A stretch of DNA of 56,940 nucleotides from a virus (lineage: Duplodnaviria > Caudoviricetes), in IMG/VR virus record IMGVR_UViG_3300048590_001377, positions 1 through 56,940 of that record; one strand, written 5' to 3'. Position 1 is the stretch's first letter. Every line of letters starts with the position of its first letter. This document shows positions 18,339-55,389 of the stretch, piece after piece. A program made the translations under genes and the position numbers. The notes under the pieces are model-generated. The model searched no databases, was not told the origin of the DNA, and saw only the letters and a program-made list of their open reading frames with translations.

Positions 18339-18400
18339 CTTGATTCCTTGAGAAAGGGGCAGCCTTTCGGCGGCCATAAGTGTGCGTGAATTGAGCGCGA

Positions 18401-23460: not shown

Positions 23461-26173
23461 CCACCACCCCCACGAATGTCAATTCGCCCACCTTCATTTC
23501 CGGCCATTCCGGCCGACCCTTGATTTGGTTCGGGATGTCATTCATGTCCTTGGAGTACCGAATCACATCGCCCTCGCCGAGCACGTTGTGCGTCTCGTAG
23601 ATCGACATTTCCATGGGTGGATCAATCGATGGCGACGGCAACTCCCACGGCTCGAATCCATCATCGGACTCCGTGATCGGCTTCTCTTCGACCGTTCGGA
23701 TGGGGCCGTGCGACGAACTGGTCACCAGCCAAACGTCGTAAAACGCACGGTTTTCCTCAATGACCTCGGTGTCGGCCGGTAGTGGCGGCGCTGGGATTTC
23801 GTACGCCATGGGCGTGGCGTGCTCACAGCCGAACAGCCATGGACCTTCATCCGCCTCAGCGCAGTCGCCGGGGAAATACACTTTCCCGCTCTGCAGCCAC
23901 CACGAGTATTGGAGGTCGAATATCCAATACGGCACATCCGGGACAACCACCGTCCGAATCAGTGTCTTGCCGCAACCGGTCGGATGGTCTTGGAGTCGCT
24001 CCCAAACACCTGTCGCGCGGTCCTCATCGCCCTCGGACGGGCACATGGCGGTGGCGCTCCCGTGCGTGTTACACCACGCCAATCTGGGGTCATGGCTATC
24101 CACGTTGCACCGCGCTCGATTCCGCCAGTGCTGGTACGTGTACGGGTCCCATTGATAGGTGTGCCCGTGGTACACCGCATGTTCAAACCGCTCAGTCGAT
24201 TCGGCCTTGGCGTAGTAGTAACCCTCGCGCTCGCCGATGGGGATTGCGATCCCCGTGCGAATGCTTCGGCCCCACGTCGTCTTGACATCAGTGACCTGAT
24301 AGAACCGCTTGCGTCGTTTGACCGTGCCCGCATGCTGGAACCACCCCAGTCCATCTACCACTTGGCAAAGGTAATACCCGAGGTCTTCACTCTTGATGTT
24401 CGTGTGCCGTGAGAATCCTGCGATCTCCTCACGGTGATCCAGATCGTTGCTGTAGAACATCATCGGAATTTTCTTCTCTTCCGATTCCTCGTGTCTGTCC
24501 CACTCCCCGATGAACATGCACTGCTCGTAGTTGTCCTCGTTTCTGAACGGGATCGCTCTCCCATCCCAGAAGAACTTGACCCATTTCAGATCGTTGCCGG
24601 CAAAAAACACAAACATCGTTGTGTCGCACAGGCCAGGGTGCGGCATGTCCTCATCCCAGGCGCGCATGTCGTGCGACAGTAGATAATCCAAAGGGAGCGC
24701 CGGGCATTTCATGTTGTTGTTCCGCTGCACCCGCACCTTCGGCCAGCCGTACAAGAAGCCCTCACTCACCTTGCTGATGGACGCGCCACCTGTTGCCAAT
24801 GGCGAAACGGACGCCCCGCGAACTCTCTGGTAACAATCGACGGTGTATCTGGCGTCCGCCGCATGGCGCCGGTCTTGCTCACTGAGCAATCCACACTTCC
24901 ATCTGGCCGCGTCCAGATCATTCCCGTCAATGCCATCGACACCACGCAATGATTCGAGGCGCCCCGCCAACCCGTCCGCTGAGTCATATTCGCGGCATGG
25001 CCCAATGTGCATGGCGCACGCATAGTGCACCCCGCGCTGGTATCCGTCGTCCCCAAATCGCCATGCCGTGTTGTGCGCCTCGCTGCCGCGCAGGTTGAAT
25101 GCCCACCCCATGTCAATGGAATAGGCGCTGTGCTCGTAGTACGCCGCCATTGCGTCTGGCTCTAGCAACCGAAGCACCTTTCCCGCATCGATCCACGGAT
25201 CGACTGCCGATGGGAATGTCTCGCCTGTCGGAAACCCGCCAAACTCATCCAACAGCCGTAGCGCGTCCACATCGTTCTCTGATTCCAGCTTTTCCCGGAA
25301 CTCCGGCAACGTCGTGGCCGGGTGCAACGGAAGGCGCATCGCCACAATGCCGCGTGACTTGCTGATTTCAACCAGCCACCACGCACCATCCTCGGCGCGG
25401 GTCAGGCCATGTGTACGAACCCAGCGCCAGTCGTACTGCACCTGCAGCCCGTGCTCGCGTACATCCTGTGCGCGCATGGCGTCCTCGTCCGATACCGGCT
25501 CGATGCGCTCCCACAGGAAGTCTTTGTAGTCGTAAAGACTCACATCGCCCCGGCCAGTTCCGGGTTTCTTGCGCTGCCGTCCAAACCCCATCAACGCCTG
25601 CACGCACTTGCGCATCGTGCCGGAATACATCGTGGGCTTGAGCTTGGTGTACTGACTGAACGTGACGGTGCTGTTGGGGTCCGCATTCATCACCCCGCCC
25701 ATGCTGTTGTGCGGCTCCACCGCCAACCGCCGCACGTACGAATAGCCAGGCCTCAGCCAATTATCGTGGCCATCCTCTCGGTAGTACCGCCAGAAGCACC
25801 GATCCGTCGGCTTGAAGGTCGCCAGTTCGTCCGGCTGATTCGCAAGGTTCGGAAACTCCTTTCGGATATACCCGCCCCTCACCGCGCCGGACACAAAATC
25901 AGGTATCAGGTCGCGTGCAATTTCGCCGCCCTGTTCCACCGTGGCGGCGCCCGCCACGATATGCAGGATCGACATGCCGCCGCCCAAGGTGACGTAGCAA
26001 TACGCATCCTCGGCCAGTTCACGCGTGTACCGCATGATGTTCACGCCACCCGCCCGCTGCCGTTCTTGCGTGATCCTCAGCCACTGCATGGCAGCGGGCA
26101 GGTATTCCCTTGCCCGTTGCTCATCGCCGCTGTAGCGGATGCTGGTCGGCCCGTAGCGGACGCCCTCGCTCAT
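23453..26173 (-). CDS. Putative virion structural protein, 906 aa
   Basis: Long ORF coupled at both ends within the structural operon; no motif recognised. Confidence 0.7.
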   Translation of the reverse strand: MSEGVRYGPTSIRYSGDEQRAREYLPAAMQWLRITQERQRAGGVNIMRYTRELAEDAYCYVTLGGGMSILHIVAGAATVEQGGEIARDLIPDFVSGAVRGGYIRKEFPNLANQPDELATFKPTDRCFWRYYREDGHDNWLRPGYSYVRRLAVEPHNSMGGVMNADPNSTVTFSQYTKLKPTMYSGTMRKCVQALMGFGRQRKKPGTGRGDVSLYDYKDFLWERIEPVSDEDAMRAQDVREHGLQVQYDWRWVRTHGLTRAEDGAWWLVEISKSRGIVAMRLPLHPATTLPEFREKLESENDVDALRLLDEFGGFPTGETFPSAVDPWIDAGKVLRLLEPDAMAAYYEHSAYSIDMGWAFNLRGSEAHNTAWRFGDDGYQRGVHYACAMHIGPCREYDSADGLAGRLESLRGVDGIDGNDLDAARWKCGLLSEQDRRHAADARYTVDCYQRVRGASVSPLATGGASISKVSEGFLYGWPKVRVQRNNNMKCPALPLDYLLSHDMRAWDEDMPHPGLCDTTMFVFFAGNDLKWVKFFWDGRAIPFRNEDNYEQCMFIGEWDRHEESEEKKIPMMFYSNDLDHREEIAGFSRHTNIKSEDLGYYLCQVVDGLGWFQHAGTVKRRKRFYQVTDVKTTWGRSIRTGIAIPIGEREGYYYAKAESTERFEHAVYHGHTYQWDPYTYQHWRNRARCNVDSHDPRLAWCNTHGSATAMCPSEGDEDRATGVWERLQDHPTGCGKTLIRTVVVPDVPYWIFDLQYSWWLQSGKVYFPGDCAEADEGPWLFGCEHATPMAYEIPAPPLPADTEVIEENRAFYDVWLVTSSSHGPIRTVEEKPITESDDGFEPWELPSPSIDPPMEMSIYETHNVLGEGDVIRYSKDMNDIPNQIKGRPEWPEMKVGELTFVGVVDG

Positions 26174-26814
26174 CAGGTTGTCAGCGAAGTCTGGTAGCCC
26201 AGTTCAAACGTTTCACCGTTGAACAGTTCACGCTCAGCGTCAAAACGTGCGGCAGACCACAGCGTCCCGCTCGTGCCGCCGCGCGTGTCGCTGGACACGA
26301 TGAACGCGCCAGTCGCTGTGATACTGGTCGTTGCCACGATGTTGAACACCGCCTTGCTGGCGCTGCTGCTGATGACGTTCGCGGCCGGCGCCGAGGGTGT
26401 CCATGCCGGACGGGTCGCGTTCGAGAATCCCTCGGTCAGTGACGTGATCTCACTCATCGTCGCAGCCACGTTCGCGGCCGTCAGCGCGTTGGTCGGCGTT
26501 GCGGCACCGTTGAACATCGAGACATACCAATTGGCGATCTTGGTGTCGGTGTGAAACATCACGGCCAGCGCCTTCATGATGCCTTGGTCCACCACCAAGT
26601 TCCGATCGAACGCAAAATCACGCTCACGCTGTGGAACACGATGGAAGAACTGGCCGATCAGTCGTTTGTCATCAAACAGCACCACACCTTCCGGCGTCAC
26701 GGTGACGCCTTGGCCAGTCATCAGTGCATTGGCAATCTGGACTTCCCAGCGCCGCAACCAGTTGCGCAGCCCCTTGGTCGGGGTTTGGATCAGTGTTTCG
26801 AGCTTGGACAGCAT
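26173..26814 (-). CDS. Putative tail structural protein, 213 aa
   Basis: Start re-called to MLSKLET (AAGGAG upstream); Thr/Ser/Ala-rich beta-type sequence (NLVVDQG..., GTLWSAARF). Confidence 0.7.
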   Translation of the reverse strand: MLSKLETLIQTPTKGLRNWLRRWEVQIANALMTGQGVTVTPEGVVLFDDKRLIGQFFHRVPQRERDFAFDRNLVVDQGIMKALAVMFHTDTKIANWYVSMFNGAATPTNALTAANVAATMSEITSLTEGFSNATRPAWTPSAPAANVISSSASKAVFNIVATTSITATGAFIVSSDTRGGTSGTLWSAARFDAERELFNGETFELGYQTSLTT

Positions 26815-26834
26815 GAGTGTGTCTCCTTGGAGAT

Positions 26835-26862
26835 CGGCACTCATGCGCCTGGGTTCAGATTG
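26835..26862 (-). promoter_or_regulatory. Late-gene leader motif, copy 1 (hairpin GGCGC-AUGA-GUGCC preceded by CAATCTGAACCCA)
   Basis: 18-bp exact match to 35049-35066; the upstream part matches the capsid leader; stem ends 21 nt before the start codon. Confidence 0.7.
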
Positions 26863-26882
26863 AAAATCCCGTGGGGGATCGC

Positions 26883-28049
26883 CTACATGACGGCAGTCAA
26901 GACCCGTCGTTGATGGATGCACGTGGCGCCCGCCTCGTATTGAGGAAGCGCCAGCCTGGTTGATTGTGGGGCAATGACCTGCCCATCGCCAGTGCCAATG
27001 CAATATCCGGCGCGCGACAGCCACGTCACTGCGTCACCGGGAATATCCAGCCCCCGCTCATCAGGCCGAAGCGTCGCAACAGAGCGCGGAACGGGCGCAG
27101 CCGCGCCAGTCGATTCCTGCACCCAATCCTTTGGCTTGGCTCCGCGCAGGAACACCACCGTGGAGCGCAGCCCGACGAACAACCCACCCGAAACCGGCGC
27201 GATGAACGCGATGCGTTCGGCGAATTGGACGATGCCGTGCCTTGGCGAATGCAGCCCGTAGCGCAACGCCTCACCCACGATCAAGCGTTTGCCGCTCGCC
27301 ACCAACAAGCGACCGTTCCACGCCGCTACATGCTCGCCTGTCGGTAGCGGGCGCAGATTTCGCGTGCCAGCGTCGATCCCCAAGTCCGCGTTGCCCAACA
27401 CATAACCCGCCACACTGGCTGGCAAGTCGGCATGGCGGTACAGGGTCGCCCCTCCTGCCTGCGTGCGATACACCCGAAGGTGGGTGGCGCCTGTCGGAAG
27501 GTCCGCTGTCAACCCGATCCCGCCACCTGTATCTATAGTCACCGTGCGCAGGGGCGACAACGCGCCTTCTTCGCCATCGCGCATGGCCGCAACGGCGACT
27601 CCGTAACGACCGGCATGCAAGCCTCCCATTTCTACCGGCACCACCGTCGGCGCAGTCGCTACCGGAACAGCCACGGGGCGCACGGTATTGCCCTGAACAC
27701 GCAGGAGCGTTGTGCGGTTCGCCACCACCAACTCGTCGTTCAGCACCGCGTAGGTGCAGGGGTCGGCGCTATTGAGCGTGGTGATCGGCGTCAGGCCCGA
27801 CACGGACACGCGGCACAACTGGTCGCCAGCGACCGCGAAAGACCCCAGCGGGCATGACCACGCGCTATGCACACCGCCAGCCAGAACCTGCGATCGCCCG
27901 TGCCGACGCTGCGGTCGCCCATCGCGATTGATGTTGACGTTCGCGGCATCGGCCAGCGCCACAGGGATGCCGTCCTGATTGCGCCCCAGCGCGCCCCGGC
28001 CACTCAGGTTGTCAATGCCCAGCGGCCACGGCCCCAATTTCGTCGTCAT
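26883..28049 (-). CDS. Putative tail/head-closure (nozzle-like) protein, 388 aa
   Basis: N-terminal PLGIDN...ADAANVNINRDG pattern and beta-propeller-like composition; position in the tail module. Confidence 0.6.
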   Translation of the reverse strand: MTTKLGPWPLGIDNLSGRGALGRNQDGIPVALADAANVNINRDGRPQRRHGRSQVLAGGVHSAWSCPLGSFAVAGDQLCRVSVSGLTPITTLNSADPCTYAVLNDELVVANRTTLLRVQGNTVRPVAVPVATAPTVVPVEMGGLHAGRYGVAVAAMRDGEEGALSPLRTVTIDTGGGIGLTADLPTGATHLRVYRTQAGGATLYRHADLPASVAGYVLGNADLGIDAGTRNLRPLPTGEHVAAWNGRLLVASGKRLIVGEALRYGLHSPRHGIVQFAERIAFIAPVSGGLFVGLRSTVVFLRGAKPKDWVQESTGAAAPVPRSVATLRPDERGLDIPGDAVTWLSRAGYCIGTGDGQVIAPQSTRLALPQYEAGATCIHQRRVLTAVM

Positions 28050-31045
28050 GTCGTCACCGTCGCGTCGCCAAATTGCGCCATGTCACTGCCCTGCACCGCT
28101 ATCGCCTTGTCCCCACACCAGCGCGCCACGGCCACTGGATCACCTACGCCACTTGCATCCAAGCCCGTTGGAGCCACCGGCCTGGCGATGCGTGGCGCAC
28201 CAAACTCCCCCGCAAATCCTTGTGTGTGCATCACGCGGGACAGGATCGCCCTGCCCCATGTCGCCAGATCGTCCCCATGAGGCTTGACCTTGCCCGCTTC
28301 CCACCGTTGAACCTCTCCGAACACACACGCATCGAATCCATCCGGCTCGATCGTGGCTCGGCCAATGACCTGCGGGCGCGGCACGCCGCCACCGGGTCGC
28401 ACGCCGCGCGCCACAATCACGCGCTGGCCTTGCTCCACCCAGGCCGTACCGAACACCTCACCGCCGCCCAGTGTCACATCACGCACATAGTCACGTTTCC
28501 ACACGCGCATCCGCAGCGCGAACTCGCCCAGCGTGTATCCGTCCATGAGCGTCATGACCGTTCCCGCAGGCTCCACGGTGCGCGGTGAGTGGCTCACCCA
28601 CGCATCGCCCCATAGCGTATGCACCTCGCCACTGAACTCGAACGGCGGGTACTCGTGACTGACCCAGTGCGACGTGCGCGGCCATGCGGGCGCGGCGGGC
28701 GCGCTGATACGAAAAGAGTCCCATCCTTGGGGTGAAACCTCCCTGTGAAAATGTTCAACGCGATGCGCACCAAACCCGCCCGGCACAATTCCATTTGGCC
28801 GCGCCGTCTTGGGACCGGTATCCACCTCCACCACCGCCGCATTGCCATACAGCGCCATGTCGAAGCCGGCAGCCACAACTTTCGGCTCGCCCACCTTAGG
28901 GAACCCCGTCCGCAAGGAACGAATGCCGTCCGGCCTGACGAACTGCCACCTGAGCGAGACACGGGGAGAACCGAAATCTGCCGTCTCGGTTGCCAAAAAT
29001 CCGGACGGAAGAACACTGCGAATCCGATGCTCAACCCGAATCGCGCCGAATGACGGCCGCGTATCCGACTGGCCGTGCACGTAGTAGTCAATCGTGTGCT
29101 CCCATGAGGTTGCGCCCACGCCGTAGGGGTAGCCCTTTGGCGCCCATATATAGTGCGGCCAGAACTGATGCCCCTCTGATGCGGGTGGGGGATCGATACC
29201 TACCGGCATGATCCACTGCGTTGCGTTCAGGCTTGGCCGTCCGAACTGCGACCCGGCCGGATCGTAGGGCGGGGTGATGCCAACCGGGATGATGCCCATC
29301 AAGGTTACGATCGGCTCGCCCCACTCGACGAAATGGCTACCTATGGGCCGAATTACCTTGCCACCGACGATCAGCCCGCCATCGTTCTGCCTTGTTCCGA
29401 ATCGCTGCGAGTCCCAGCCTATACCGCCAACCGGCTGCGGCGCCGGCGGGTCAGGGATCACATTGCGCACCTGGTGCAGTGGGCTGATCGGACGTGGCGC
29501 GATGCCATTCGGTAATACCCAAGACCTGCGATCACGCACGATGGGCCTGCCCCACCACACAGCGTTGAAGCCCTGCAACTCGTACCGCTCGAACTGATTG
29601 CGCACCTGCGTGGCGCCCCACTCTGTCGCCACCCAGCCAAATGCGTGCAGCTCAGGCGTCCGATTCCAAACCCGTGTCTCACTGCCCCACCGTGTGCGCG
29701 ACAGGATCGAGTTGGGCGCGATGATCGTGAAATGCTCGCGCACATTCGCCAAACCGTGTCGCCACGCATCGAATCCCGGCGGCTGGACGAAGCGTTGCAA
29801 GTGTTGCACCGTGGCCACGCCGAGCGGCGGTGGACGCGGCAATGAGAAAGGCGCGACAGTGCGCTCCCCAAATGCCACCATCGGCACCCCGAATGCTTGC
29901 GAATCCCAATGCGCAGGCCTCGTCGTCTGCTGGTTGCTCCACACTGGGCCGTGCGCACCAAACACCTGCGAATTCCATCCAGCCGGGGCCAGAACACGCG
30001 CATCGTTGTGGACCGCAAGCCAGTGGCCGAGCGTGAACGAATCCCACCCAGCCGGTCGCAGTTCGCGGTTCGCATCCGCCACCAGCGCATTACCCCACAG
30101 CGTGCACTCCACGCCATACTCAAGCTCGACGATGCGTGCCTTGTTGGCCACCTCGGGCCTACCAAACTTGCTTGACCGCCAGCCTTCCGGGTGCGGCGTC
30201 TTGTTGCGATTCTCCACATAGGTGAACGTGCCAAACACCCCGCCGTCGTTTGGTGCTGGCTCATTGATCTGCGTCAGGTATTGCGTCAGGTTGTACGCCT
30301 CTGGCCTCCCGAACCGCGACTGTTCATCGAGACCGCCATCCCGCCATCCACTCGGCTTGGCATACTGCGTCCAGTTCGAAACGGCCGGCTGTCCGTAGCC
30401 GCCCGCGACAAACCCCGCGTTGGCCAGATCGAGTGCAATTCGCGGTGTGTGAACTTCATGCCCGCCAAACACTTTCGATTCCCAACCCACCGGATCAACA
30501 GGATGGTCGTGATCTACCCTCGGCAAACCAGAAAGCGTGGCTACATCACCTTGCGGAAACACCTGCCGCTCGCTGAACCACACATTGGAGGTGCCAAACG
30601 GCCCTGACACGATGCCATGACCCGCAAGATCGATCTCGCGCACGCCACTGGCCACCATGGCATCGCCCCACTTGGTTTGCACCCCCAGCGACGCATAGAT
30701 CCTTCGCGTCCCCAGGCTCACCCAGTGCTCACCCCACCCAACAAACGCACTCAACCCGCCCGTAGGGCCGATTGTTTGGTGAAAATTCCAGACCAGCGTG
30801 CCGAGGTAGCTCCCCCAGCCCAGCGCATCAAACCCGGCCGGTGCCACATACTCATGTGCGTTGCGGATCGCCGTTGCGCCGAACGCCAGGCCAATAAAGG
30901 CATACGGGTAAACATACTGATCTTCCCCCGCCACCGCGTCCCGACGAAACTCCAGCGGAACGGCACTGCCAGACGGCGGGGTGTATGGCCCACCGATGAA
31001 GTCCATCGGGACTGCGTTACCGGGCGGTGGGGTGTAGGTACTCAC
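28046..31045 (-). CDS. Putative tail protein with degenerate internal repeats, 999 aa
   Basis: Many P-x-G-[WF]-D-S-x-x-[FW]-G units; duplicated N-terminal YTPPxGxAVP. Confidence 0.7.
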   Translation of the reverse strand: MSTYTPPPGNAVPMDFIGGPYTPPSGSAVPLEFRRDAVAGEDQYVYPYAFIGLAFGATAIRNAHEYVAPAGFDALGWGSYLGTLVWNFHQTIGPTGGLSAFVGWGEHWVSLGTRRIYASLGVQTKWGDAMVASGVREIDLAGHGIVSGPFGTSNVWFSERQVFPQGDVATLSGLPRVDHDHPVDPVGWESKVFGGHEVHTPRIALDLANAGFVAGGYGQPAVSNWTQYAKPSGWRDGGLDEQSRFGRPEAYNLTQYLTQINEPAPNDGGVFGTFTYVENRNKTPHPEGWRSSKFGRPEVANKARIVELEYGVECTLWGNALVADANRELRPAGWDSFTLGHWLAVHNDARVLAPAGWNSQVFGAHGPVWSNQQTTRPAHWDSQAFGVPMVAFGERTVAPFSLPRPPPLGVATVQHLQRFVQPPGFDAWRHGLANVREHFTIIAPNSILSRTRWGSETRVWNRTPELHAFGWVATEWGATQVRNQFERYELQGFNAVWWGRPIVRDRRSWVLPNGIAPRPISPLHQVRNVIPDPPAPQPVGGIGWDSQRFGTRQNDGGLIVGGKVIRPIGSHFVEWGEPIVTLMGIIPVGITPPYDPAGSQFGRPSLNATQWIMPVGIDPPPASEGHQFWPHYIWAPKGYPYGVGATSWEHTIDYYVHGQSDTRPSFGAIRVEHRIRSVLPSGFLATETADFGSPRVSLRWQFVRPDGIRSLRTGFPKVGEPKVVAAGFDMALYGNAAVVEVDTGPKTARPNGIVPGGFGAHRVEHFHREVSPQGWDSFRISAPAAPAWPRTSHWVSHEYPPFEFSGEVHTLWGDAWVSHSPRTVEPAGTVMTLMDGYTLGEFALRMRVWKRDYVRDVTLGGGEVFGTAWVEQGQRVIVARGVRPGGGVPRPQVIGRATIEPDGFDACVFGEVQRWEAGKVKPHGDDLATWGRAILSRVMHTQGFAGEFGAPRIARPVAPTGLDASGVGDPVAVARWCGDKAIAVQGSDMAQFGDATVTT

Positions 31046-31048
31046 GGG

Positions 31049-32317
31049 TCACCGAGGGTACGTGCGGGTCTCGTTATCGACCCAGCCACTTTCCCCAGCC
31101 ACGCTCCATTCGTCCGTCCATGTCGTGCCATCATCTGACGATTGGATGGTGAAGGCCGTAGGTGCTTGGGATGCCACCGAGATCGTAATCCGTACCGCGT
31201 CAAAATCAACTGCTGACGGGTACTCAATCGCAATCCAAGCTGGGGGGGCACTATTTGCTGGAGTCCACCGATTCGAATCGAACGTGTTATCGAACGCATA
31301 CCCCGGCGCGATGCCCGAATATGAATATGTGGAGGACGCGGTGATTGTCGCACCAGATGTCGATAGACGCACACCAGCCTCAAGGAACTCGATCTCGCGC
31401 ATCGTCCCGTAAGAGTTCGCCGCCGTCACATACACCCGCCAATACTTGTGCGGTGGCGTCGGTGTCGACACGGTGAACGACGCATACGCTTCCCTGCCGT
31501 TAGTATCCACAGCCTTGATTTGGAACGTACACGTTCCGCTCCCGGCTGTCAGCGTGCCGGGCAACGTAGCCGTGCTGGCATCGAAGCTCAGGCCCGTAGG
31601 CAACGTGCCAGAATCAAGGCTGTAGGTGTACGGCCCAATGCCGCCCGTGGCTGCAAAGACCACGCTCACGGTATCGCCGATAGCCAGCTCCTCGGGCACG
31701 GCCGGGCGTGGCAGACTGAGCTGCGCTACCCGCACCACAATGTCCAGCGTGTGCGTGTACGTGTCGATGCTGTCAGTCAGGTCGTAGGTGATCGTGTAGG
31801 TGCCAGCCGTCGAGCCGACGGCTGATGCCTGTAGTCGGCCCGCCGAGAGCGTCACCCCGGTCGGGTATGTGCCCGACACATAGGCTGCTGTGACCGTACC
31901 CGCACCACCCTCGATCGGCAGCGGCACATCAAGCGCTGCGCCTGCGGTTGCCTTGATTGTTGTGGTTGAGAAACGCGGCGTGAAGTACGGCTGCACGTTG
32001 GACTGCAGTGCATCGTTCTCACCGGCCAAACGCGCGGACACGTCGTAGCGCAGTCGGTGATCCAGCCCTGTGATCGACCACTCCCCGGCGACGGAGGATG
32101 TCGTCGTGGCCGCCAGCGCCCCGTCCCCGTACTGCCCCGGCACTGGCGCGCGCCAGCGCACCATGACCGTAGCCGCTGTGGGTACGCCATCGACGGTAGT
32201 CAACGCCGAAGGGTTCTTGCTCGACAGCGTGCCGTCGCCCCGGAACGAGCGGACGCGCTCCTTCCGACCCAGCAGTGGGATCTTGAGCACATGCACCTTG
32301 CGGCCGATATAGTCCAT
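31049..32317 (-). CDS. Tail fibre/adhesin: two putative Ig (He_PIG-like) domains plus a C-terminal discoidin/F5-8C-like domain, 422 aa
   Basis: ATGGIGPYTYSLDSGTLPTGLSF (Ig signature); KYWRVYVT..EIEF, AFD..W and FTIQSSDDGTTWT (discoidin-like). Confidence 0.75.
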   Translation of the reverse strand: MDYIGRKVHVLKIPLLGRKERVRSFRGDGTLSSKNPSALTTVDGVPTAATVMVRWRAPVPGQYGDGALAATTTSSVAGEWSITGLDHRLRYDVSARLAGENDALQSNVQPYFTPRFSTTTIKATAGAALDVPLPIEGGAGTVTAAYVSGTYPTGVTLSAGRLQASAVGSTAGTYTITYDLTDSIDTYTHTLDIVVRVAQLSLPRPAVPEELAIGDTVSVVFAATGGIGPYTYSLDSGTLPTGLSFDASTATLPGTLTAGSGTCTFQIKAVDTNGREAYASFTVSTPTPPHKYWRVYVTAANSYGTMREIEFLEAGVRLSTSGATITASSTYSYSGIAPGYAFDNTFDSNRWTPANSAPPAWIAIEYPSAVDFDAVRITISVASQAPTAFTIQSSDDGTTWTDEWSVAGESGWVDNETRTYPR

Positions 32318-32322
32318 AGCCG

Positions 32323-33279
32323 TTACTCGAACAACATGGCCACGCCGGCGTAATGCGCTTCCTCACTGTCTACGGCAAGACACGTCTCGCGGCCGAGTGC
32401 GATGAAGTTGCGCGCGGCCCCGACCACAGGCTGGAACTCGAACTGCTGCCCCTCGGCGATCGTGGTGTGGTAGTAGCTCACCATGAATGGGAACGGCTGC
32501 GGCGGGCTGGATGGGTAGTGCAGCGGGTCGAGTAGCAGGCCGTCGACGCCTGCTGCAATATCCGAACGACCGATCCGAGGGCACACACTGTCTTTGGCGA
32601 CAGGTGTCCCGCCCGCCGAAAACGCTGCTACGGATCGCTGTAGTTTGGTGCCCCAATCCTGCCCGGTGGTTGTAAGGGTTGGGTAATACACCCCCAGCCC
32701 CTCGCCTGTCGGTACGCCAGAAGCATCCAGCGTGCGCTGGATGAACAGCGATAGCGTTGCGCCGTAATACACTCCGTAGCCAGATGAAAACGGCTTGTTT
32801 CGCGAACCCGCCCCATAGCACAACCCGAGAAACCCGTCGGCTTCCGAGTAACAGAGATATGATTGGCCGGCGGAGGTGAGCTGCGACGTTGTTGAGCTGC
32901 CAGTGTTGTAGGCCTGCGGGCACTGGAACGTCGCAACGGCGGTACCCTTGAAAGACACCGTGGCGCGAATCCGTGGCGTGCGAGTACGGTTCGTACTCGA
33001 ATTGTAGAGACCTTCAATCCCACACCCGAACTCCAGCTTGATGATGACCGGAGCCGTGGCTTGCAGTACATCATCAAACCGATACTCTCGGAACCCCTCG
33101 AACGTACCGTCTGCAGGCAGCGCTGAAACCGCACTGATGTCAAGCTGCCCAGCCGTCGCGGTCTGTACCAGCCCCGCGTCGATCAGGCAATCGTGTACAT
33201 CGGTGAACAGCGTCTTCCATGCGGGCAGATCATCCCGTAGCGGGATCGTCGGCGGGGTCCATTGTTTGGCGTAGCCCAT
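32323..33279 (-). CDS. Putative tail-associated protein, 318 aa
   Basis: Start re-called to MGYAKQW (TAATG overlap, GGAGG RBS); adjacent to the adhesin. Confidence 0.65.
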   Translation of the reverse strand: MGYAKQWTPPTIPLRDDLPAWKTLFTDVHDCLIDAGLVQTATAGQLDISAVSALPADGTFEGFREYRFDDVLQATAPVIIKLEFGCGIEGLYNSSTNRTRTPRIRATVSFKGTAVATFQCPQAYNTGSSTTSQLTSAGQSYLCYSEADGFLGLCYGAGSRNKPFSSGYGVYYGATLSLFIQRTLDASGVPTGEGLGVYYPTLTTTGQDWGTKLQRSVAAFSAGGTPVAKDSVCPRIGRSDIAAGVDGLLLDPLHYPSSPPQPFPFMVSYYHTTIAEGQQFEFQPVVGAARNFIALGRETCLAVDSEEAHYAGVAMLFE

Positions 33280-33722
33280 TATTCGTTGCCTCCAAGAATC
33301 CAATCGCGGATCGCGCGTGCGTCCATGTTTGTCCTCAACCCACACGCGGCCAGATCGGCCACCATTACATCCATCATCTCCGCCCGATTGCCAAGCAGGC
33401 CATGATGGGCAAAATCGGCGCCGCTCATCTGCACCAGCGCCCCGACCGTCGAAATGCCAATCGATGCCAGCCGTTTCGCCAGGGCCAGACCAAACACGCC
33501 CGCCGATTCGATTGGCGCGTTCAGTAGTGCATTGCGGCCCGCTCGGGTTTTCAGGTCGCGGGGTGACTCATCGTCCGCATCCAGATCGATCCCTGCCGTC
33601 ACCACGGTCAACACCTTGGGGAACATCGTGTCAAAGTCCTGCGGCGCGGCCTGCAACACCATGCGTGCCACCTCCATGCGCACACCCAGCTTGGCCTGCC
33701 GCTTTTGGCTGCCACAGCTCAT
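33279..33722 (-). CDS. Hypothetical protein, 147 aa
   Basis: Start re-called at the ATGA overlap; the C-terminus (LASIGISTVGALV) resembles a helix-hairpin-helix. Confidence 0.6.
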   Translation of the reverse strand: MSCGSQKRQAKLGVRMEVARMVLQAAPQDFDTMFPKVLTVVTAGIDLDADDESPRDLKTRAGRNALLNAPIESAGVFGLALAKRLASIGISTVGALVQMSGADFAHHGLLGNRAEMMDVMVADLAACGLRTNMDARAIRDWILGGNE

Positions 33723-34021
33723 GCCGCCCCTCGTATTGGGTCTTCGCCCTTCCAGTAACCTTTCGCCGAATGCCACGCGACGTACTTCTCCAGCCACTGC
33801 GGCAACTCACCGCGATGGATCGCCTGCTGCGTGCGTTGCTGCGCGTAGGCATCCGCAGGCATGCCGACGAAGTTCGGTTCGCGTTCCTCGACGTACATCT
33901 GATAAGGCGGATAGCGGCACAGCCGCGCCAGATCGAGTTGCCCGTCTGGCGTGTGTACCGGCTTGGCTTCGATCCCGGATGGTGCGACGACAATGGGCGG
34001 TGGTTTGACTGCTTCGGTCAT
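33719..34021 (-). CDS. Hypothetical protein, 100 aa
   Basis: ATGA overlaps on both sides. Confidence 0.7.
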   Translation of the reverse strand: MTEAVKPPPIVVAPSGIEAKPVHTPDGQLDLARLCRYPPYQMYVEEREPNFVGMPADAYAQQRTQQAIHRGELPQWLEKYVAWHSAKGYWKGEDPIRGAA

Positions 34022-34590
34022 TGATTCGCTCCAATCAGTTTGGCCCGCTTCGGTGCATCCACCGAGGTGTACCTGCCCTGCCCGCCGGACAACTGCGCCG
34101 TCAAGGCGCGCACCGCCTCCACGCCGACAACCGGCTCACGCAACGCGGCCGTGATGTCCGAAAGCATCTCCCGAATGTCATCTGGCGTGATCCCATCACC
34201 CACACGGGCAAGAAACTCGGTCAGGTTCGCGTTCAGCGCCTGCGACTGCTGCAACTGGTTCTGCAACTGCCGTGACTGCTCAACCCAGAAGTCACGCTCC
34301 AGCTTGGCGCGGCTCAGCGCCACCGCCTCTATCCGCGAGCGAGATGATCCACCGCGATCAAACAGTTCCCGCACGGCCGCATACGCCCTTTGTGAAGCCT
34401 TCACGATCAAATCTTTCTCCTTCTCAAGCCCGCGCACACCCAGTTCATGCGCGGCGTCCAATATCCCAAGGGCACGCGCACGCGCCCAATCAACTTCCCG
34501 CTCAGTCTTGGCTACATTCATTTCGGTGATTCTGTCCAAAACCAACCCATGGATAGTTGCGTTTTTGCTTGGTTGCCTCATTGCACTCAT
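34018..34590 (-). CDS. Hypothetical coiled-coil protein, about 190 aa (start uncertain between 34581 and 34620)
   Basis: AGGAG lies 7 nt before the ATG at 34590; coiled-coil centre. Confidence 0.6.
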   Translation of the reverse strand: MSAMRQPSKNATIHGLVLDRITEMNVAKTEREVDWARARALGILDAAHELGVRGLEKEKDLIVKASQRAYAAVRELFDRGGSSRSRIEAVALSRAKLERDFWVEQSRQLQNQLQQSQALNANLTEFLARVGDGITPDDIREMLSDITAALREPVVGVEAVRALTAQLSGGQGRYTSVDAPKRAKLIGANQ

Positions 34591-34595
34591 GCGCA
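34582..34595 (-). promoter_or_regulatory. Late-gene hairpin motif, copy 2 (UGCGC-AUGA-GUGCA)
   Basis: 12-nt core GCGCATGAGTGC identical to the other copies; outer pair is U-A instead of G-C; the loop AUG is the likely start codon. Confidence 0.55.
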
Positions 34596-34616
34596 TGCTC
34601 CTATTCGGAAAAGATG

Positions 34617-35030
34617 TCACAACTTGAATATTTTATTCGCCCCGTTGTCCCACGTGACGATGATGTCGCCGCCGTTCGGCGTGATCGGCAAACCCGTCGC
34701 CGTATCGATATAGGCAATCAGCGGACTCGTGCCCTCCGTGCCCGTATCCATGAACAACACCAGCGCCTCAATGCTCGCGCCAGTCACGCTACTGAACGTG
34801 ATGTCCGCCGCGTCCGCAGCACCACCGGTCGTGGTCTTGCTGGTCAACGTCACGCCGGTTGACGTGCCCACTCGCGCCGACGCGGAAATGTCGGACAAAA
34901 ACTCGTGCGTCGTGAAATTTGGGGTGTAGGCGCCGGTGTCCACCAACAGACACTTGATCGCATCGCTCATCCAGTTGAGCTGCGCCTCAAGAAATCGTTG
35001 CCGGCCCTTGTCGTACAGGGTGTTTGCCAT
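34617..35030 (-). CDS. Virion/tail structural protein, 137 aa
   Basis: Start MANTLYDKG with GGAGAG RBS; C-terminal LPITPNGGDIIVTWD recognised from phage tail-associated proteins. Confidence 0.75.
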   Translation of the reverse strand: MANTLYDKGRQRFLEAQLNWMSDAIKCLLVDTGAYTPNFTTHEFLSDISASARVGTSTGVTLTSKTTTGGAADAADITFSSVTGASIEALVLFMDTGTEGTSPLIAYIDTATGLPITPNGGDIIVTWDNGANKIFKL

Positions 35031-35205
35031 GAGTACTCTCCATCGTTGCGGCACTCATGCGCCTGGTCTTGTCGTGCTTGATCTTGATCTCGGCCGGCGC
35101 GGTAACCACGATCCGTGCACGCGCGCCCGTCTTGTATTCCAATGAAAGTTCCACGCCGCCCGCGATAATCCGGTCGCCGGGTGAAATGTCGAAACAGGCC
35201 GGCAT
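34987..35205 (-). CDS. Small CsrA/RsmA-fold-like protein (paralog B), 72 aa
   Basis: FDISPGDRIIAGGVELSLEYKTGARARIVVTAPAEIKI aligns by eye with CsrA ([39 protein letters not shown]); GGAG upstream. Confidence 0.6.
   Translation of the reverse strand: MPACFDISPGDRIIAGGVELSLEYKTGARARIVVTAPAEIKIKHDKTRRMSAATMESTHGKHPVRQGPATIS
35049..35066 (-). promoter_or_regulatory. Late-gene leader motif, copy 3 (CCAGGCGCATGAGTGCCG)
   Basis: 18-bp exact match to 26835-26852; stem ends 19 nt before the ATG at 35030. Confidence 0.7.
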
Positions 35206-35207
35206 CG

Positions 35208-35888
35208 TCAGACGAACTCCGCCTGCACGCCGACAATGGGTGAAATCCCCCACAGCCGTATTTCCGTCATGCTCGGGAGCCGCCCCACCTTGGCCGCGAA
35301 CCGCTGCGCGTAATCCACTGCACGTTGATCGCTGCGCGTGTCGGCGTCGATCAGGCTGAAAGCCAAATGCGCAGCCCAGTCAAGAAGGTTTTCGCGCCAA
35401 TGGCTCGGAATGGCGGGCACGTCACCGTCAGCCGCCATGACCTCCGACTCCAACGGCGTGCGCCAGACGTTGAGGTGCAACACGCCGGCACTATCCACAG
35501 GACGATCCAGGTACAGCCGCCCATCGTGGTAGTCGGGAATCCAATAGTCCGGGGAGCCGGCCTCACTGTTTTCCCAATCTGGCTTCTCCTTCCACAACCG
35601 TTTTGCCGTGATGCCGGCCAGCCCGTGACAATGCCCAACGATGCGCGCATGGCGGACGGCGAGAATGGCTGGATGCAGGGTGATGTAGCGGTCACCCTCG
35701 GCGAGTGCGTACTGCGTCACCTCCGGCGTTTCGGTGTCCACCAAACAGCGGGCGCGGAGACACACCTGAGTCACGGCGGCGTTGAGATGGTCGATCAGCG
35801 CCGCGTCGCTCCACAACTGGCCAGGCGTAGTCGTGTCGTCCAGATAGTCCCGACGAAGCCGCGTCAGAAGGGTTTCAAGGTTCATCAC
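35208..35888 (-). CDS. Head-tail adaptor/connector-like protein, 226 aa
   Basis: LRRDYLDD...WSDAALIDHLN pattern typical of podoviral adaptors; located after the capsid genes. Confidence 0.65.
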   Translation of the reverse strand: MMNLETLLTRLRRDYLDDTTTPGQLWSDAALIDHLNAAVTQVCLRARCLVDTETPEVTQYALAEGDRYITLHPAILAVRHARIVGHCHGLAGITAKRLWKEKPDWENSEAGSPDYWIPDYHDGRLYLDRPVDSAGVLHLNVWRTPLESEVMAADGDVPAIPSHWRENLLDWAAHLAFSLIDADTRSDQRAVDYAQRFAAKVGRLPSMTEIRLWGISPIVGVQAEFV

Positions 35889-36358
35889 CGATCGCCCACG
35901 TGCGCCTCAACCACGTCGATCCAGCTCTTGCGCGGATCACCGGACGCCCTTTCCGCTTCGAGTGCTGATTTCAACACTTCAATGGGTTTTGTGTTGATCG
36001 TGGCCTTGAGCGCGCGCACCGTCAGTTCGCGGACCTCGGCAACCATTTCAATAAACTCGGGAGAATCGGCAGTCGGTTCGGTCTGCGGCTGCGCAGAGGG
36101 CGCAATCGGCGCCACCGTCGCGGCGGGTCGCTGAATCTGCACCTGCACGCCACCATCCTGCGCCATTCGGAAGCTGCCCGTCATAGTCAGCAACCTTTGG
36201 ATGTGTGCTTCCTCGATCACCTCGCACACATACGGCGCGTTCGGGTCGTCGGTCTCCGGCGCGAAGTGATATTGCCCAGCAGGCCACGGCCAGCGATCAC
36301 CCGCCGAGAACGTCACATGCGTTCCGCCGCTGCGGCGCAAAATACTTTCTATTTTCAT
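35885..36358 (-). CDS. Hypothetical head-module protein, 157 aa
   Basis: GAGGAGG RBS; coupled to the adaptor gene. Confidence 0.7.
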   Translation of the reverse strand: MKIESILRRSGGTHVTFSAGDRWPWPAGQYHFAPETDDPNAPYVCEVIEEAHIQRLLTMTGSFRMAQDGGVQVQIQRPAATVAPIAPSAQPQTEPTADSPEFIEMVAEVRELTVRALKATINTKPIEVLKSALEAERASGDPRKSWIDVVEAHVGDR

Positions 36359-36368
36359 TCTGCCTCCT

Positions 36369-36399
36369 CAAAACGAAGGGGCGCACGATGCGCCCCTTC
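36369..36399 (-). terminator. Intrinsic terminator-like hairpin
   Basis: gaaggggcgca/tgcgccccttc 11-bp stem followed by GTTTT on the minus strand. Confidence 0.65.
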
Positions 36400-36421
36400 A
36401 ACCTCACTGCCCTGCGAAGGA

Positions 36422-36886
36422 TCAGCCGTCGATGGTCGCGTCGTACGGCCGAGTCACCAAGTTGGCAACGATCTTGCCGGTCGTCGCCACCGTGGCGTGG
36501 GCCGCCAGCGCGTGGACGTAGAGCAACACCGGCGCATTCGGGCTGCCGATCATGCCCGACACCAGAATGTCCTCGCCAGTCAGCACCACGGCCGTTTCGG
36601 ATGCGGCCGTGCCTTTCAGCGCGTCCGCATCGTCCGCCGTACCAATGGAATAGTCACCGGTCGGCACGCCGTCGGCGTCAATGGCCGGGAGGCTAATGCT
36701 GGACAGGTGCTGCACCAGCACTTCGCCTGCCGGGATAGTCGCGAAATGAATCTTGTCGGTGGTGACGCTCGTGAACGTCGCTGGGCCGTCTTTTGCGAAG
36801 TCGAACACCTGCTGGTTCAGCGTCAACTGCCCGGCGTCCTCGCCCGTGCGCAGGCTCGTGATGCCACTGTTGGAATAGGTAGCCAT
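36422..36886 (-). CDS. Putative capsid decoration/minor capsid protein, 154 aa
   Basis: Start re-called to MATYSNSG (AAGGAG RBS); immediately follows the major capsid gene. Confidence 0.65.
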   Translation of the reverse strand: MATYSNSGITSLRTGEDAGQLTLNQQVFDFAKDGPATFTSVTTDKIHFATIPAGEVLVQHLSSISLPAIDADGVPTGDYSIGTADDADALKGTAASETAVVLTGEDILVSGMIGSPNAPVLLYVHALAAHATVATTGKIVANLVTRPYDATIDG

Positions 36887-36901
36887 GAAAATTCTCCTTG
36901 C

Positions 36902-36936
36902 GAAAAGATGAGGCCCGGAACGCGCGTCCGGGCCTC
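36902..36936 (-). terminator. Intrinsic terminator-like hairpin after the major capsid gene
   Basis: gaggcccgga/tccgggcctc 10-bp stem followed by ATCTTTT on the minus strand. Confidence 0.65.
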
Positions 36937-36942
36937 GATGGG

Positions 36943-38055
36943 TCAGGCGACCTCGGGCGAATACACGTCCGCCGCGATCGAACCGTAACGCTTGCCGCCG
37001 AACGTCGTCGCCGCAAGGCCCGTGATGCAGTCCGTGGTGATGACGATCTCGTTGCCGCGATCGTCCTCTTCTTCCTGCCAACCCATACGCAGGCCGCCAC
37101 CACCTGAGCCATAGGCCTGCACCAGCGCCTGCATGCCAATGAACAGGTTGCGGGACGCTTCAAGGTTGAGACCAACACCGTAATCGTTGAAGCGGATGAT
37201 GCCGTCGTGTTCGTGCAACACCACGTTGTTGTACAACCCAAGACCGCCCTTGAAGATCGGCGACTGCTTGCCGATGGCCGTTGCCAGCGCCTTCTGCAAG
37301 TCCTGCCAACTGCCCACCGTTGTGACCGTACGCAGGCGGTATTCGTCCTGTGGCGACATGATGTACAGGTAGTGGTTCTCGCCCTCGATCATGATCGGGC
37401 GAATCTTCTGCACGTCGTTGACGCCCGCGCCACCCATCGTCTTGGCCTTCACCACCAGACGATCGATCAGGTTCAACGAAATCCCGTCCGTGTTCGCCAG
37501 GTTGTTCTTTGCCGTGGCCGAGCCGCCATACACCTGATGATCGGCGTCAGGCGTGTGCAGGCCGGTGGCGTCGGGGATACCCGTGAAGCTCGTGTCCTCG
37601 ATGAAATCGGCGTTGATGCCGCGTGCGCCTGCCAGATAGATGCTGGTCGTCTCATCGTTCCATCTCTGCCACCAGTCCGCCATCAGCTTGCGCGCAACCA
37701 GACGCAGGTCGTGCAGCACGCGCTTGCGCGTCATGCGGCCACCCGCCGAAACACTGGCGCGCACCTGGTTGATGCGCACCGAGCCGGTGAGCTTGCGCAG
37801 CGCCTCCTGCTTGCCCTTGATGCGGTCATCGCCGTAGGTCGGCTTGCCGCGAAGCTGCGCGAACAGGTCGAAGCTGATTTCGTCGCCCGCGTCGCTTTCC
37901 AGTTCCGTCAGAATCTGGATCGGTACTTCCGCGTCGCGGCCCTTCTTTGCAAACCGATTGTCCCAATAGGACTTGCGGGCCTTGTCCGCGAATAGCGTCG
38001 CGGAAAACCGCTTGACGGCGCTGGGATCACCCACGCCAAAGACAGTACGTGCCAT
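36943..38055 (-). CDS. Major capsid protein, N4-gp56/DUF4043-like, 370 aa
   Basis: ELESDAGDEISFDL, SAGGRMTRKR, PIFKGGLG, WQEEEDDRGN; follows portal and scaffold. Confidence 0.88.
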   Translation of the reverse strand: MARTVFGVGDPSAVKRFSATLFADKARKSYWDNRFAKKGRDAEVPIQILTELESDAGDEISFDLFAQLRGKPTYGDDRIKGKQEALRKLTGSVRINQVRASVSAGGRMTRKRVLHDLRLVARKLMADWWQRWNDETTSIYLAGARGINADFIEDTSFTGIPDATGLHTPDADHQVYGGSATAKNNLANTDGISLNLIDRLVVKAKTMGGAGVNDVQKIRPIMIEGENHYLYIMSPQDEYRLRTVTTVGSWQDLQKALATAIGKQSPIFKGGLGLYNNVVLHEHDGIIRFNDYGVGLNLEASRNLFIGMQALVQAYGSGGGGLRMGWQEEEDDRGNEIVITTDCITGLAATTFGGKRYGSIAADVYSPEVA

Positions 38056-38075
38056 GTTTCACCTCGTGGTGTTGT

Positions 38076-38102
38076 AGGCACTCCTGACCTTGGGTTCAAT
38101 TG
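38076..38102 (-). promoter_or_regulatory. Late-gene leader motif, copy 4 (capsid variant AGGUC-AGGA-GUGCCU preceded by CAATTGAACCCA)
   Basis: Aligns with the 26835-26862 leader; the GUGCC ends 21 nt before the capsid ATG. Confidence 0.65.
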
Positions 38103-38144
38103 TTCCCCGGAATGGGGACAGCCAGTCTTGGGCTGAAAGGAAAG

Positions 38145-38348
38145 CTATTCGGGCCGCTTGATGCCGGCTGCCGGAACCGGCCCAATCTTGCGCTCGAATC
38201 TCGGTGCGGTGGCCGCTTCACGCGTGACGCGGTATTCGCTCTCGATCATGACGCGCGTCGCACGTCCTGATTTTTCCACAACGCGCACCACGGTGCCACT
38301 CCCGATGCGTACCACGTCGCCTGGAACGAGATCGAGACGAAGGGCCAT
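38145..38348 (-). CDS. Small CsrA/RsmA-fold-like protein (paralog A), 67 aa
   Basis: MALRLDLVPGDVVRIGSGTVVRVVEKSGRATRVMIES shows the CsrA five-strand pattern and resembles 34987-35205 (DxxPGD, K[ST]G..xR). Confidence 0.6.
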   Translation of the reverse strand: MALRLDLVPGDVVRIGSGTVVRVVEKSGRATRVMIESEYRVTREAATAPRFERKIGPVPAAGIKRPE

Positions 38349-45770: not shown

Positions 45771-45846
45771 TGGTAGCGGCGGCAGGAGTCGAACCCGCGA
45801 CATCCAGGGTATGAACCCGGCGCTCTTCCGCCTGAGCTACGCCGCA
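45771..45846 (-). tRNA. tRNA with anticodon CAU (Met; fMet-like or Ile2 identity unresolved)
   Basis: 76-nt cloverleaf: D stem GCTC/GAGC, anticodon loop TTCATAC, TTCGA T-loop, encoded CCA. Confidence 0.92.
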
Positions 45847-55307: not shown

Positions 55308-55389
55308 GGCGGGAAGGGTGGCGGGAATACAACACCCGAAAGGGGAATACCGCCCGCCGACTTGCTTCGGCTTCTAGCCTTCCCGCCAC
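55308..55389 (+). ncRNA. C4-type antisense RNA
   Basis: Closing stem ggcgggaagg/ccttcccgcc and a ccc-GAAA-ggg hairpin, preceded by GGTTTTTTTGTGCCCG. Internal cttgcttcgg and gcttctag are complementary to the upstream sites 55239-55257 and to the downstream ctagaag at 55404-55410. Confidence 0.8.

Follow-up and report, generated by a model that had tools for sequence, protein, structure and literature searches.

The stretch of DNA considered here (hereafter the window) is a provirus record of IMG/VR, IMGVR_UViG_3300048590_001377, of 56,940 bases and with an estimated completeness of 92%. It is a Bcep22/F116-like podophage provirus, nearly all genes of which lie on the minus strand. Within its virion gene module, a small hairpin with an A-N-G-A loop recurs close to gene starts, in the company of two small genes for CsrA-like proteins. 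Judged from sequence and predicted structure, proteins and hairpins together probably constitute a phage-owned translational switch. The features on which the argument rests are the following (coordinates are those of the window):

38145-38348, minus strand: CsrA-like gene 1 (67 aa), directly 5' of the major capsid gene, in the position of Bcep22/BcepIL02 gp49
38076-38090, minus strand: hairpin site 3, a degenerate copy in the capsid leader, 20 nt before ATG 38055; a bulge is needed
36943-38055, minus strand: major capsid gene (370 aa; phrog_334)
35050-35063, minus strand: hairpin site 2, 14 nt identical to site 1, within the 3'-terminal part of CsrA-like gene 2 and ending 19 nt before ATG 35030
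34987-35205, minus strand: CsrA-like gene 2 (72 aa), in the position of H66 gp49, with a 44-nt overlap with the next gene; it contains hairpin site 2
34617-35030, minus strand: gene 3' of site 2 (137 aa; phrog_644), counterpart of H66 gp50
34582-34595, minus strand: hairpin site 4, UGCGC-AUGA-GUGCA, with the outer G-C replaced by U-A
34018-34590, minus strand: gene 3' of site 4 (about 190 aa), start ATG 34590 or 34581
26836-26849, minus strand: hairpin site 1, GGCGC-AUGA-GUGCC, in the 68-nt gap after the Hc3 head-closure gene; the stem ends 21 nt before ATG 26814
26173-26814, minus strand: gene 3' of site 1 (213 aa; phrog_8123, a family without assigned function)

A first-pass annotation of this DNA, made by eye, had singled out an 18-nucleotide repeat, and the repeat is exact: CCAGGCGCATGAGTGCCG occurs at 26835-26852 and at 35049-35066, both on the minus strand. 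With up to three mismatches there are three matches against 0.15 expected, and none of 100 shuffles reaches three. The 12-mer core GCGCATGAGTGC is present exactly three times and on the minus strand only (26837-26848, 34583-34594 and 35051-35062), and its backwards-read control has no match in the window. Sites 1, 2 and 4 share one architecture, a GC-rich 5-bp stem with a G·U pair, a C-G closing pair and an AUGA loop, and their isolated folding energies are -7.9 kcal/mol for each of sites 1 and 2 and -5.6 kcal/mol for site 4. They are also the three best matches in the window (24.1, 21.5 and 19.2 bits for sites 1, 2 and 4, respectively) to a covariance model, R1, built from 62 hairpins of relatives and the window. 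Site 4 is as it had been described, with its U-A exchange and with ATG 34590 in the loop. A second ATG (34581) lies directly 3' of the stem, so that this site overlaps the translation start of its own gene.

The variant reported in the capsid leader did not survive the analysis. Site 3 is bulged, its isolated fold reaches just -3.1 kcal/mol and is equalled by 97 of 200 shuffles, its predicted loop is GGAG and not AGGA, and it has no R1 match at E<=10. It is a decayed copy and no supported member, and three good copies remain. The spacing of 19-21 nt before a structural-gene start, claimed for three copies, therefore stands for sites 1 and 2, whereas site 3 has the distance in a degenerate form; likewise, the common fold with an AUGA or AGGA loop stands for sites 1, 2 and 4 but not for site 3. 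In the closest relative (L006), two intact hairpins occupy the capsid-leader position of site 3. Since R1 misses 5-nt-loop variants such as that of phage POI1126, as well as site 3, counts based on it are lower bounds.

Searching Rfam, which had been proposed as a check, gave no family for the hairpins: the gathering-score scan of the window returned only a tRNA and sRNA-Xcc1, and at E<=1 the hairpin is without a family match in the loci of four relatives. No decoy small RNA of the CsrB/RsmY/RsmZ type was found in the window, either by the Rfam gathering scan or as a cluster of R1 sites. A promoter and terminator scan placed nothing beside the hairpin copies, and its site number was not above that of shuffles. 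The idea that an in-frame ATG or GTG in the motif is the true start of the downstream genes was rejected: the 18-nt identity extends 9 nt upstream, and relatives show varied motif distances and frames.

Several further features of the surroundings may be recorded. Just 5' of the motif, TGAACCCA is common to sites 1 and 3 (26851-26873 and 38091-38117, minus strand), and is itself preceded at both by a small C-run/G-run hairpin (UCCC-CCAC-GGGA and UCCCC-AUUCC-GGGGA). A palindromic hairpin at 36374-36400 (minus strand), GGGGCGCA-UCG-UGCGCCCC followed by UUCGUUUU, lies 16 nt before ATG 36358; it has a motif-like core and a terminator-like appearance, with weak R1 matches on both strands (13.2 and 12.3 bits). 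A further R1 match at 3613-3638 (plus strand; 17.3 bits, E 0.02) belongs to the 'UCAAGAG' variant class of L177 and L192. It is antisense to the giant open reading frame (ORF) of the window, has no obvious gene downstream and may be due to chance.

The conservation of the hairpin was assessed in relatives fetched by capsid homology only, starting from an alignment of 18 capsid proteins. The best 80 of 568 confirmed loci were used, of which 78 had at least 150 nt upstream. A strict hairpin, defined as C-A-N-G-A-G with at least three flanking pairs, is present on the sense strand in 61 of these 78 capsid leaders, on the antisense strand of the same stretches in none, and in 2 of 312 control windows inside the capsid gene. 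The major capsid gene is the chief hairpin-preceded gene in relatives. An exact scan of viral contigs with the 14-mer found at least 118 loci, many with a second hairpin 25-32 nt upstream in which the stem is different and the core G-C-A-N-G-A-G-Y is kept. In five related, largely complete records, all 18 R1 matches are on the capsid-gene strand, seven of them in one phage. Moreover, phage H66, which was not selected by the motif, carries three covarying AGGA-loop hairpins, with stems unlike those of the window, at equivalent junctions: one separates the Hc3 gene from gp55 (site 1), one lies in the 3'-terminal part of the CsrA-like gene ahead of gp50 (site 2) and one is at the gp50/gp51 junction, where the annotated ribosome-binding site is in the loop (site 4). 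Loop variants in relatives include AGGA (H66, Alix) and GGAUG (BcepIL02). The hairpin is thus a real and widely conserved feature. Agrobacterium phage Atu_ph08 (NC_070876.1) has three more R1 matches, at 40443-40468 (plus), 14424-14449 (plus) and 31598-31623 (minus), and one of these three is on the strand of the divergent endolysin gene adjoining its capsid gene.

Covariation was measured on 62 non-identical hairpins aligned without gaps, of which 57 come from capsid-selected leaders, 3 from H66 and 2 from the window. The closing C and G and three of the four loop bases do not vary, which makes five invariant columns. For the stem, the covariation score of 0.395 exceeds the 0.155 of shuffles (none in 500 reaches the observed value) and the 0.075-0.152 of controls with slid partners. 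Because the three innermost flanking pairs were enforced by selection, only their pair types are informative: pair 10-17 is G·U in 47 hairpins, G-C in 10, U·G in 3 and U-A in 2. Pair 7-20, which was not enforced, is paired in 50 of the 62 hairpins with six pair types (GC 25, CG 13, UG 5, AU 4, GU 2 and UA 1; 12 unpaired). Conservation and covariation in relatives, by which the initial proposal was to be judged, are accordingly both present. The conserved wobble, together with the strict strand bias, points to an RNA element acting on the sense strand rather than to a DNA element.

The hairpin and the CsrA-like gene travel together, even unlinked, across many related phages, and the co-occurrence envisaged at the outset is borne out. 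A CsrA-like ORF ends just upstream of the capsid gene at 72 of the 80 capsid-selected loci. Among the 78 with a usable leader, 58 have both partners, 14 the CsrA-like gene only, 2 the hairpin only and 2 neither, with 2 borderline; one locus with the hairpin only (L163) has a CsrA-like gene elsewhere in its record. Among the matches listed for the 14-mer scan, a CsrA-like ORF was found at 26 of the 118 loci, with the motif at most 60 nt after, or inside, its 3' end in 20 and 177-786 nt downstream in 6. The association also outlasts separation of the two elements. In Atu_ph08 the CsrA-like gene is 27 kb from the capsid leader, which keeps the hairpin and CACUCAUG; in Ralstonia phage Alix an opposite-strand gene lies between the CsrA-like and capsid genes, and the capsid-leader hairpin is kept; in POI1126 the CsrA-like gene is 1.4 kb away and the hairpin is a variant with a 5-nt loop. 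A CsrA-like match at E<=1 and an R1 match at E<=0.05 are both absent from four phages whose capsids are 28-30% identical (Aeromonas phiARM81mr, Shigella Ss-VASD and two Vibrio phages). Three capsid relatives without a hairpin (L168, L204 and L205) have no CsrA-like gene, but their records are fragments of 10-28%. A single CsrA-like gene of either type coexists with AUGA hairpins (L052, L049).

The two small ORFs had been described as paralogous and CsrA-like. Both exist and both match phrog_8397, 'CsrA-like regulator' (protein 1, E 1.8e-6; protein 2, E 1.8e-4), but they are 20% identical and are members of one family, not close paralogues. A word-index homologue search with protein 1 recovered itself and one 91% identical protein only, and a tblastn search against phages found three Burkholderia records with protein 1 and none with protein 2. 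As tblastn was too insensitive, whole records were searched with profiles instead. A profile of 25 phage family members (A1) matches RsmE (2jpp) at E 3.1e-9, CsrA (1y00) at E 1.8e-7 and several CsrA entries at about 1e-7. Subfamily profiles of the nearest relatives of protein 1 (A4) and of protein 2 (A5) match RsmE 2jpp (E 1.2e-5) and CsrA 2bti (E 2.2e-6), respectively, and 17 of the 25 family members match Pfam CsrA at E<1, the best at 4.6e-7. AlphaFold2 monomer models have mean predicted local distance difference test (pLDDT) scores of 84.6 (protein 1) and 75.7 (protein 2). Among the matches listed by Foldseek, the top 13 for the protein 1 model are CsrA/RsmA/RsmE chains only and the top 12 for the protein 2 model are CsrA family chains only, with a root-mean-square deviation (rmsd) of 0.7-1.6 Å over 39-45 columns to crystal or cryo-EM chains. 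The best PDB matches of both models have template-modelling (TM) scores of 0.48-0.60 by query length and modest Foldseek E values (0.01-0.3). From profile matches and predicted folds, both ORFs are assigned to the CsrA fold, as a diverged phage branch. By homology they presumably form an interlocked dimer with two RNA-binding faces; a complex prediction for two copies of protein 1 (residues 1-50, alignment A1) scored 0.40 against a mark of 0.42, with controls at 0.00.

Gene positions agree with this assignment in cultured phages: BcepIL02 gp49 and PEp14 gp9 have the position of ORF 1, directly before the capsid gene, and H66 gp49 that of ORF 2, overlapping the phrog_644 gene. H66 has a second CsrA-like match far from its virion module (NC_042342.1, 16900-17052, minus strand; E 6e-10). 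The CsrA-like ORFs of three relatives (L068, L092 and L112) and of the window (34987-35205) read through hairpins. In such cases the C-terminal tail holds a motif-encoded peptide, R-M-S-A, and a ribosome translating the regulator gene would melt the presumed operator that the gene carries.

A second pairing is available to the leader: the start-codon region complements the hairpin's loop and 3' arm, and compensatory changes in several lineages preserve this match. The two folds are mutually exclusive. The pairing partners in the window, followed by those of four relatives, are:

26811-26819, minus strand: CACUCAUGC, including start codon 26814-26812; 9-nt perfect complement of GCAUGAGUG in hairpin 1
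35028-35034, minus strand: ACUCAUG, including start codon 35030-35028; 7-nt complement of CAUGAGU in hairpin 2
L149 (AAGA loop): hairpin AAGAGUGC, complement at start GCACUCUU
Alix: hairpin GGAGUGUG, complement at start CACACUCC
BcepIL02: hairpin GGAUGUG, complement at start CACAUCC
POI1126: hairpin CAUGACGUG, complement at start CACGUCAUG

The gene strand of the window has just two copies of ACTCATG, one at each of the starts that follow sites 1 and 2. In POI1126 a base insertion in the loop is matched by a base insertion before the AUG. Watson-Crick duplexes of at least 7 bp between the hairpin (loop and 3' arm) and positions -12 to +6 are found in 15 of 56 non-identical capsid leaders as against 3 of 1624 control windows; those of at least 8 bp are found in 9 of 56 against 0 of 1624, and those of at least 5 bp in 29 of 56. 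Some other leaders have a 3' hairpin flank that pairs instead with the Shine-Dalgarno sequence, SD (CCUUGG with CCAAGG). In PEp14 (L206, 590-700) and SopranoGao (L207, 600-700), a hairpin with a 5-nt loop, CUGCGC-A(U/A)GAC-GUGCGG, has a 3' arm that complements CCGCACGU located before the SD and not at the AUG; by their sequences, these enterobacterial relatives have a differently wired version of the presumed switch.

Folding predictions agree with the complementarity. The minimum free energy structure of the site 1 leader (RNAfold) is a long helix of -21.4 kcal/mol (z -3.2; 1 of 200 shuffles as good), in which the hairpin is paired to the start codon and an upstream CUCC to the SD. The same folding behaviour is predicted for site 2 and for the leaders of L014, L052, BcepIL02 and H66. 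The small hairpin at sites 1 and 2 is therefore not the predicted ground state and competes with a helix that buries both SD and AUG. The distal hairpins of tandem pairs are stable and have no alternative pairing partner. Forcing the small hairpin has a median cost of 5.7 kcal/mol; once it is locked, the median cost of opening positions -13 to +3 falls from 10.6 to 4.9 kcal/mol, the opening cost being lowered by at least 2 kcal/mol in 49 of 58 leaders and raised in none. In 22 of 56 real leaders the opening cost is above the 95th percentile of shuffles.

These observations suggest a model in which the RNA operator, a variable GC-rich stem with a G·U (or G-C, or U·G) pair, a C-G closing pair and an A-N-G-A loop on virion-gene messages, would be bound by the phage CsrA-fold proteins (38145-38348 and 34987-35205), presumably as dimers. 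The leader at sites 1 and 2 would adopt either the small hairpin with an open start or the longer helix burying SD and AUG. There and in most capsid leaders of relatives, the protein would capture the metastable hairpin and so free SD and AUG, resulting in activation; a stable distal hairpin, where there is one, could serve to recruit the dimer. Binding at site 4 and its H66 counterpart, where the start codon or SD is part of the hairpin itself, would repress or occlude. The reading we favour, with some confidence, is that a CsrA-like dimer on the hairpin governs the access of ribosomes to the virion genes, its effect being probably activation at sites 1 and 2 and occlusion at site 4. From the predicted structures, the logic of the leader is likely that of a switch, possibly of activation, rather than simple occlusion, and a capsid start closed by default may point to an activator, with which it makes more sense than without. 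More tentatively, it seems possible that these proteins have evolved their own specificity, for an A-N-G-A tetraloop on a C-G and G·U platform, as activators of an autonomous late translational regulon (capsid and other virion genes) in a large podophage group, and that the two diverged paralogues split the sites or heterodimerise.

A number of points weigh against the favoured reading. The capsid leader of the window itself holds just a degenerate copy and lacks the long-range complement, which is present in just a quarter to half of leaders. Leaders shuffled upstream still have a median opening cost of 6.4 kcal/mol, against 10.6 observed, and other genes of this GC-rich window cost 2.6-14.5 kcal/mol to open. 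With an energy control that is only moderate, the case for a switch was rested on complementarity and compensatory changes, not on energies. The comparison with CsrA (PF02599) envisaged by the first-pass annotation succeeded with profiles and predicted folds but not at the Pfam cut-off of 27 bits: protein 1 reaches 13.9 bits (E 0.056), protein 2 (34987-35205) has no Pfam CsrA match, and single-sequence PDB searches with either protein did not return CsrA. Arg44 of E. coli CsrA/RsmE is an RNA-contact arginine. In alignments read by eye, its column is conserved in neither protein: protein 1 has Ala there and protein 2 has His, preceded at a distance of two and one positions by Arg or Lys, in a region where the alignment is uncertain. 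A canonical CsrA operator is a short hairpin that presents GGA in its loop and is located at the SD or overlaps it. The AUGA loops of sites 1, 2 and 4 are without GGA, the degenerate site 3 alone having AGGA, so that they are not canonical CsrA sites; the original analogy with GGA-type hairpins thus fails for three of the four window loops, although AGGA and GGAUG loops do exist in relatives. Finally, 14 of the 72 CsrA-positive leaders fail the strict hairpin definition, with 5-6-nt loop variants there, one locus (L175) has a hairpin without a detected CsrA-like ORF, and the co-occurrence counts are inflated by linkage through common descent.

The hairpins could instead be self-contained cis elements that throttle or couple translation, or stabilise the message, without a dedicated protein, while the CsrA-like proteins act on host mRNAs. 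The helix burying SD and AUG is the predicted ground state without protein, and ribosomes alone could open the hairpin, by translational coupling, where it is read through as part of the CsrA-like ORF, as at site 2 and in several relatives. Host manipulation has moreover been proposed for phage CsrA, in the available portion of PMC11879866. We nevertheless regard this explanation as unlikely. The five loop and closing positions are invariant over 62 hairpins while the stems vary, which fits recognition by a factor better than stability alone; the distal hairpins of tandem pairs, though stable, pair with nothing else; an upstream stop codon precedes the hairpin at site 1 and in many relatives, so that coupling cannot be the general rule; and hairpin and gene co-occur even 27 kb apart.

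This last point bears equally on the idea that another factor, such as host CsrA/RsmA, another phage protein or a ribonuclease, binds the hairpins and that the CsrA-like gene just shares the module. The AGGA-loop variants of H66, Alix and others do resemble host CsrA/RsmA sites, and most co-occurring elements are adjacent, so shared descent could explain much. The AUGA and AAGA loops are, however, without GGA, the pairing persists when unlinked and both partners are absent together in four distant relatives, and, according to the accessible text of PMC7366521, Burkholderia hosts of csrA-positive phages lack a chromosomal csrA. This explanation is accordingly a poor candidate. Action of the repeat at the DNA level, as a late promoter or an operator for a DNA-binding protein, is highly improbable. 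It would suit the intergenic hairpins at the head of the transcription unit in Atu_ph08 and Alix and the extra upstream sequence common to sites 1 and 3, but not the strict strand bias (61 against 0, and 18 of 18), the conserved G·U, which is an A-C mismatch on the opposite strand, or the location of site 2 within a coding region, and no promoter-like site is near any copy.

The remainder of the virion module, assigned by PHROG matches, is as follows:

41922-43322, minus strand: large terminase (PHROG match)
39275-41443, minus strand: portal (PHROG match)
38352-39278, minus strand: 308-aa protein
between the capsid gene and 35208, minus strand: structural proteins (PHROG matches)
28049-34617, minus strand: other virion genes (PHROG matches)
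26883-28049, minus strand: Hc3 head-closure homologue (PHROG match)
216-18377, minus strand: giant ORF (6053 aa) at the end of the virion module

The PHROG search gave no match for the product of 34018-34590. The nearest cultured phages are the Burkholderia Bcep22/BcepIL02 group and F116-like Pseudomonas phages such as H66, with DNA identity to the window of just 64-74% over short stretches. Bcep22-like phages have giant virion-associated proteins that the giant ORF presumably resembles; a further parallel, mentioned in the available part of PMC11879866, is the 2198-aa 'polyvalent protein' of PTXU04. Directly past the capsid stop lies a strong terminator-like hairpin (36910-36936, minus strand) of 10 pairs, 8 of them G-C, followed by a T-rich tail, and the head genes of H66 are flanked by annotated terminators. 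The two Rfam matches of the window are sRNA-Xcc1 at 55308-55395 (plus strand; 79.7 bits, gathering score 53) and a tRNA gene at 45774-45846 (minus strand; 55.3 bits).

Several known systems offer comparisons. The CsrA/RsmA/RsmE proteins, exemplified by RsmE bound to hcnA (PDB 2jpp) and by CsrA at glgC, a known hairpin operator case, share the fold of a small beta-strand protein and the use of short hairpins with purine-rich loops beside ribosome-binding sites. Moreover, relatives have tandem sites at a spacing (25-32 nt) that a dimer with two faces would fit. The present case differs in that the proteins are phage-encoded and below the Pfam cut-off, that the presumed targets are the phage's own virion genes, that the loops are 4-nt A-N-G-A (AUGA) over C-G and G·U and not GGA-containing, that no CsrB/RsmZ-type decoy RNA was found in the window, and that the operator is 5' of the SD and complementary to the start codon instead of covering the SD (except at site 4). 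Phage translational operators are likewise known, in the activation of mom by Mu Com, which opens an inhibitory stem, in the MS2 coat-replicase hairpin and in T4 RegA. There too a small phage protein on a leader hairpin decides whether the translation start is open; the folds are unrelated, and here one motif is spread over several virion genes and hundreds of phages.

For activation, the closest parallel is E. coli ymdA, where, in the portion available of Renda et al. 2020 (PMC7492729), footprints and toeprints indicate that CsrA activates by destabilising a ribosome-blocking structure. A regulator bound to the leader sites would similarly destabilise such a structure at sites 1 and 2, where this is the action favoured; ymdA, unlike the window, is a host gene with canonical sites, whereas the window case is read from sequence and predicted energies. 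The annotated phage CsrA homologues (BcepIL02 gp49, DC1, CSP3 orf23, PEp14 gp9, H66 gp49 of the 'RsmM' type and PTXU04 gp28) are of the same family, and their genes are placed likewise, ahead of the capsid gene or among virion genes (PMC10269572, PMC7366521, both as partly available). As far as their accessible text goes, these reports list the gene and do not mention an RNA partner. One survey counts 30 csrA-positive phages and calls for loss-of-function tests (PMC7366521), the csrA copy of CSP3 is classed among 'moron genes' (PMC10269572), and knock-down of the PTXU04 homologue gives small plaques, its role in the phage cycle being called untested (PMC11879866), each according to the available text. 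In full-text literature searches, supplements not covered, neither the hairpin nor its pairing with a CsrA-like protein was found described. The pairing had been put forward as undescribed, which agrees with these searches for the hairpin but not for the genes: phage csrA-like genes beside capsid genes were already annotated (BcepIL02 gp49, H66 gp49, PEp14) and surveyed, in the accessible part of PMC7366521. What is new is the complementarity of the hairpin to the start-codon region and the resulting two-state leader.

Lists of phage csrA genes go back to at least 2011-2020, with no target known for them, and the hairpin provides a concrete and testable candidate. Cultured relatives, namely BcepIL02, PEp14, SopranoGao, Atu_ph08 and H66, make the idea directly testable. 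If it is true, a loop without GGA and the competition between hairpin and start codon would widen the known modes of recognition and action of the CsrA fold. That the hairpin travels with the gene, even unlinked, suggests translational timing or dosing of virion proteins in many podophages, whose hosts include Burkholderia, Pseudomonas, Ralstonia, Erwinia, Klebsiella and Agrobacterium as well as uncultured hosts.

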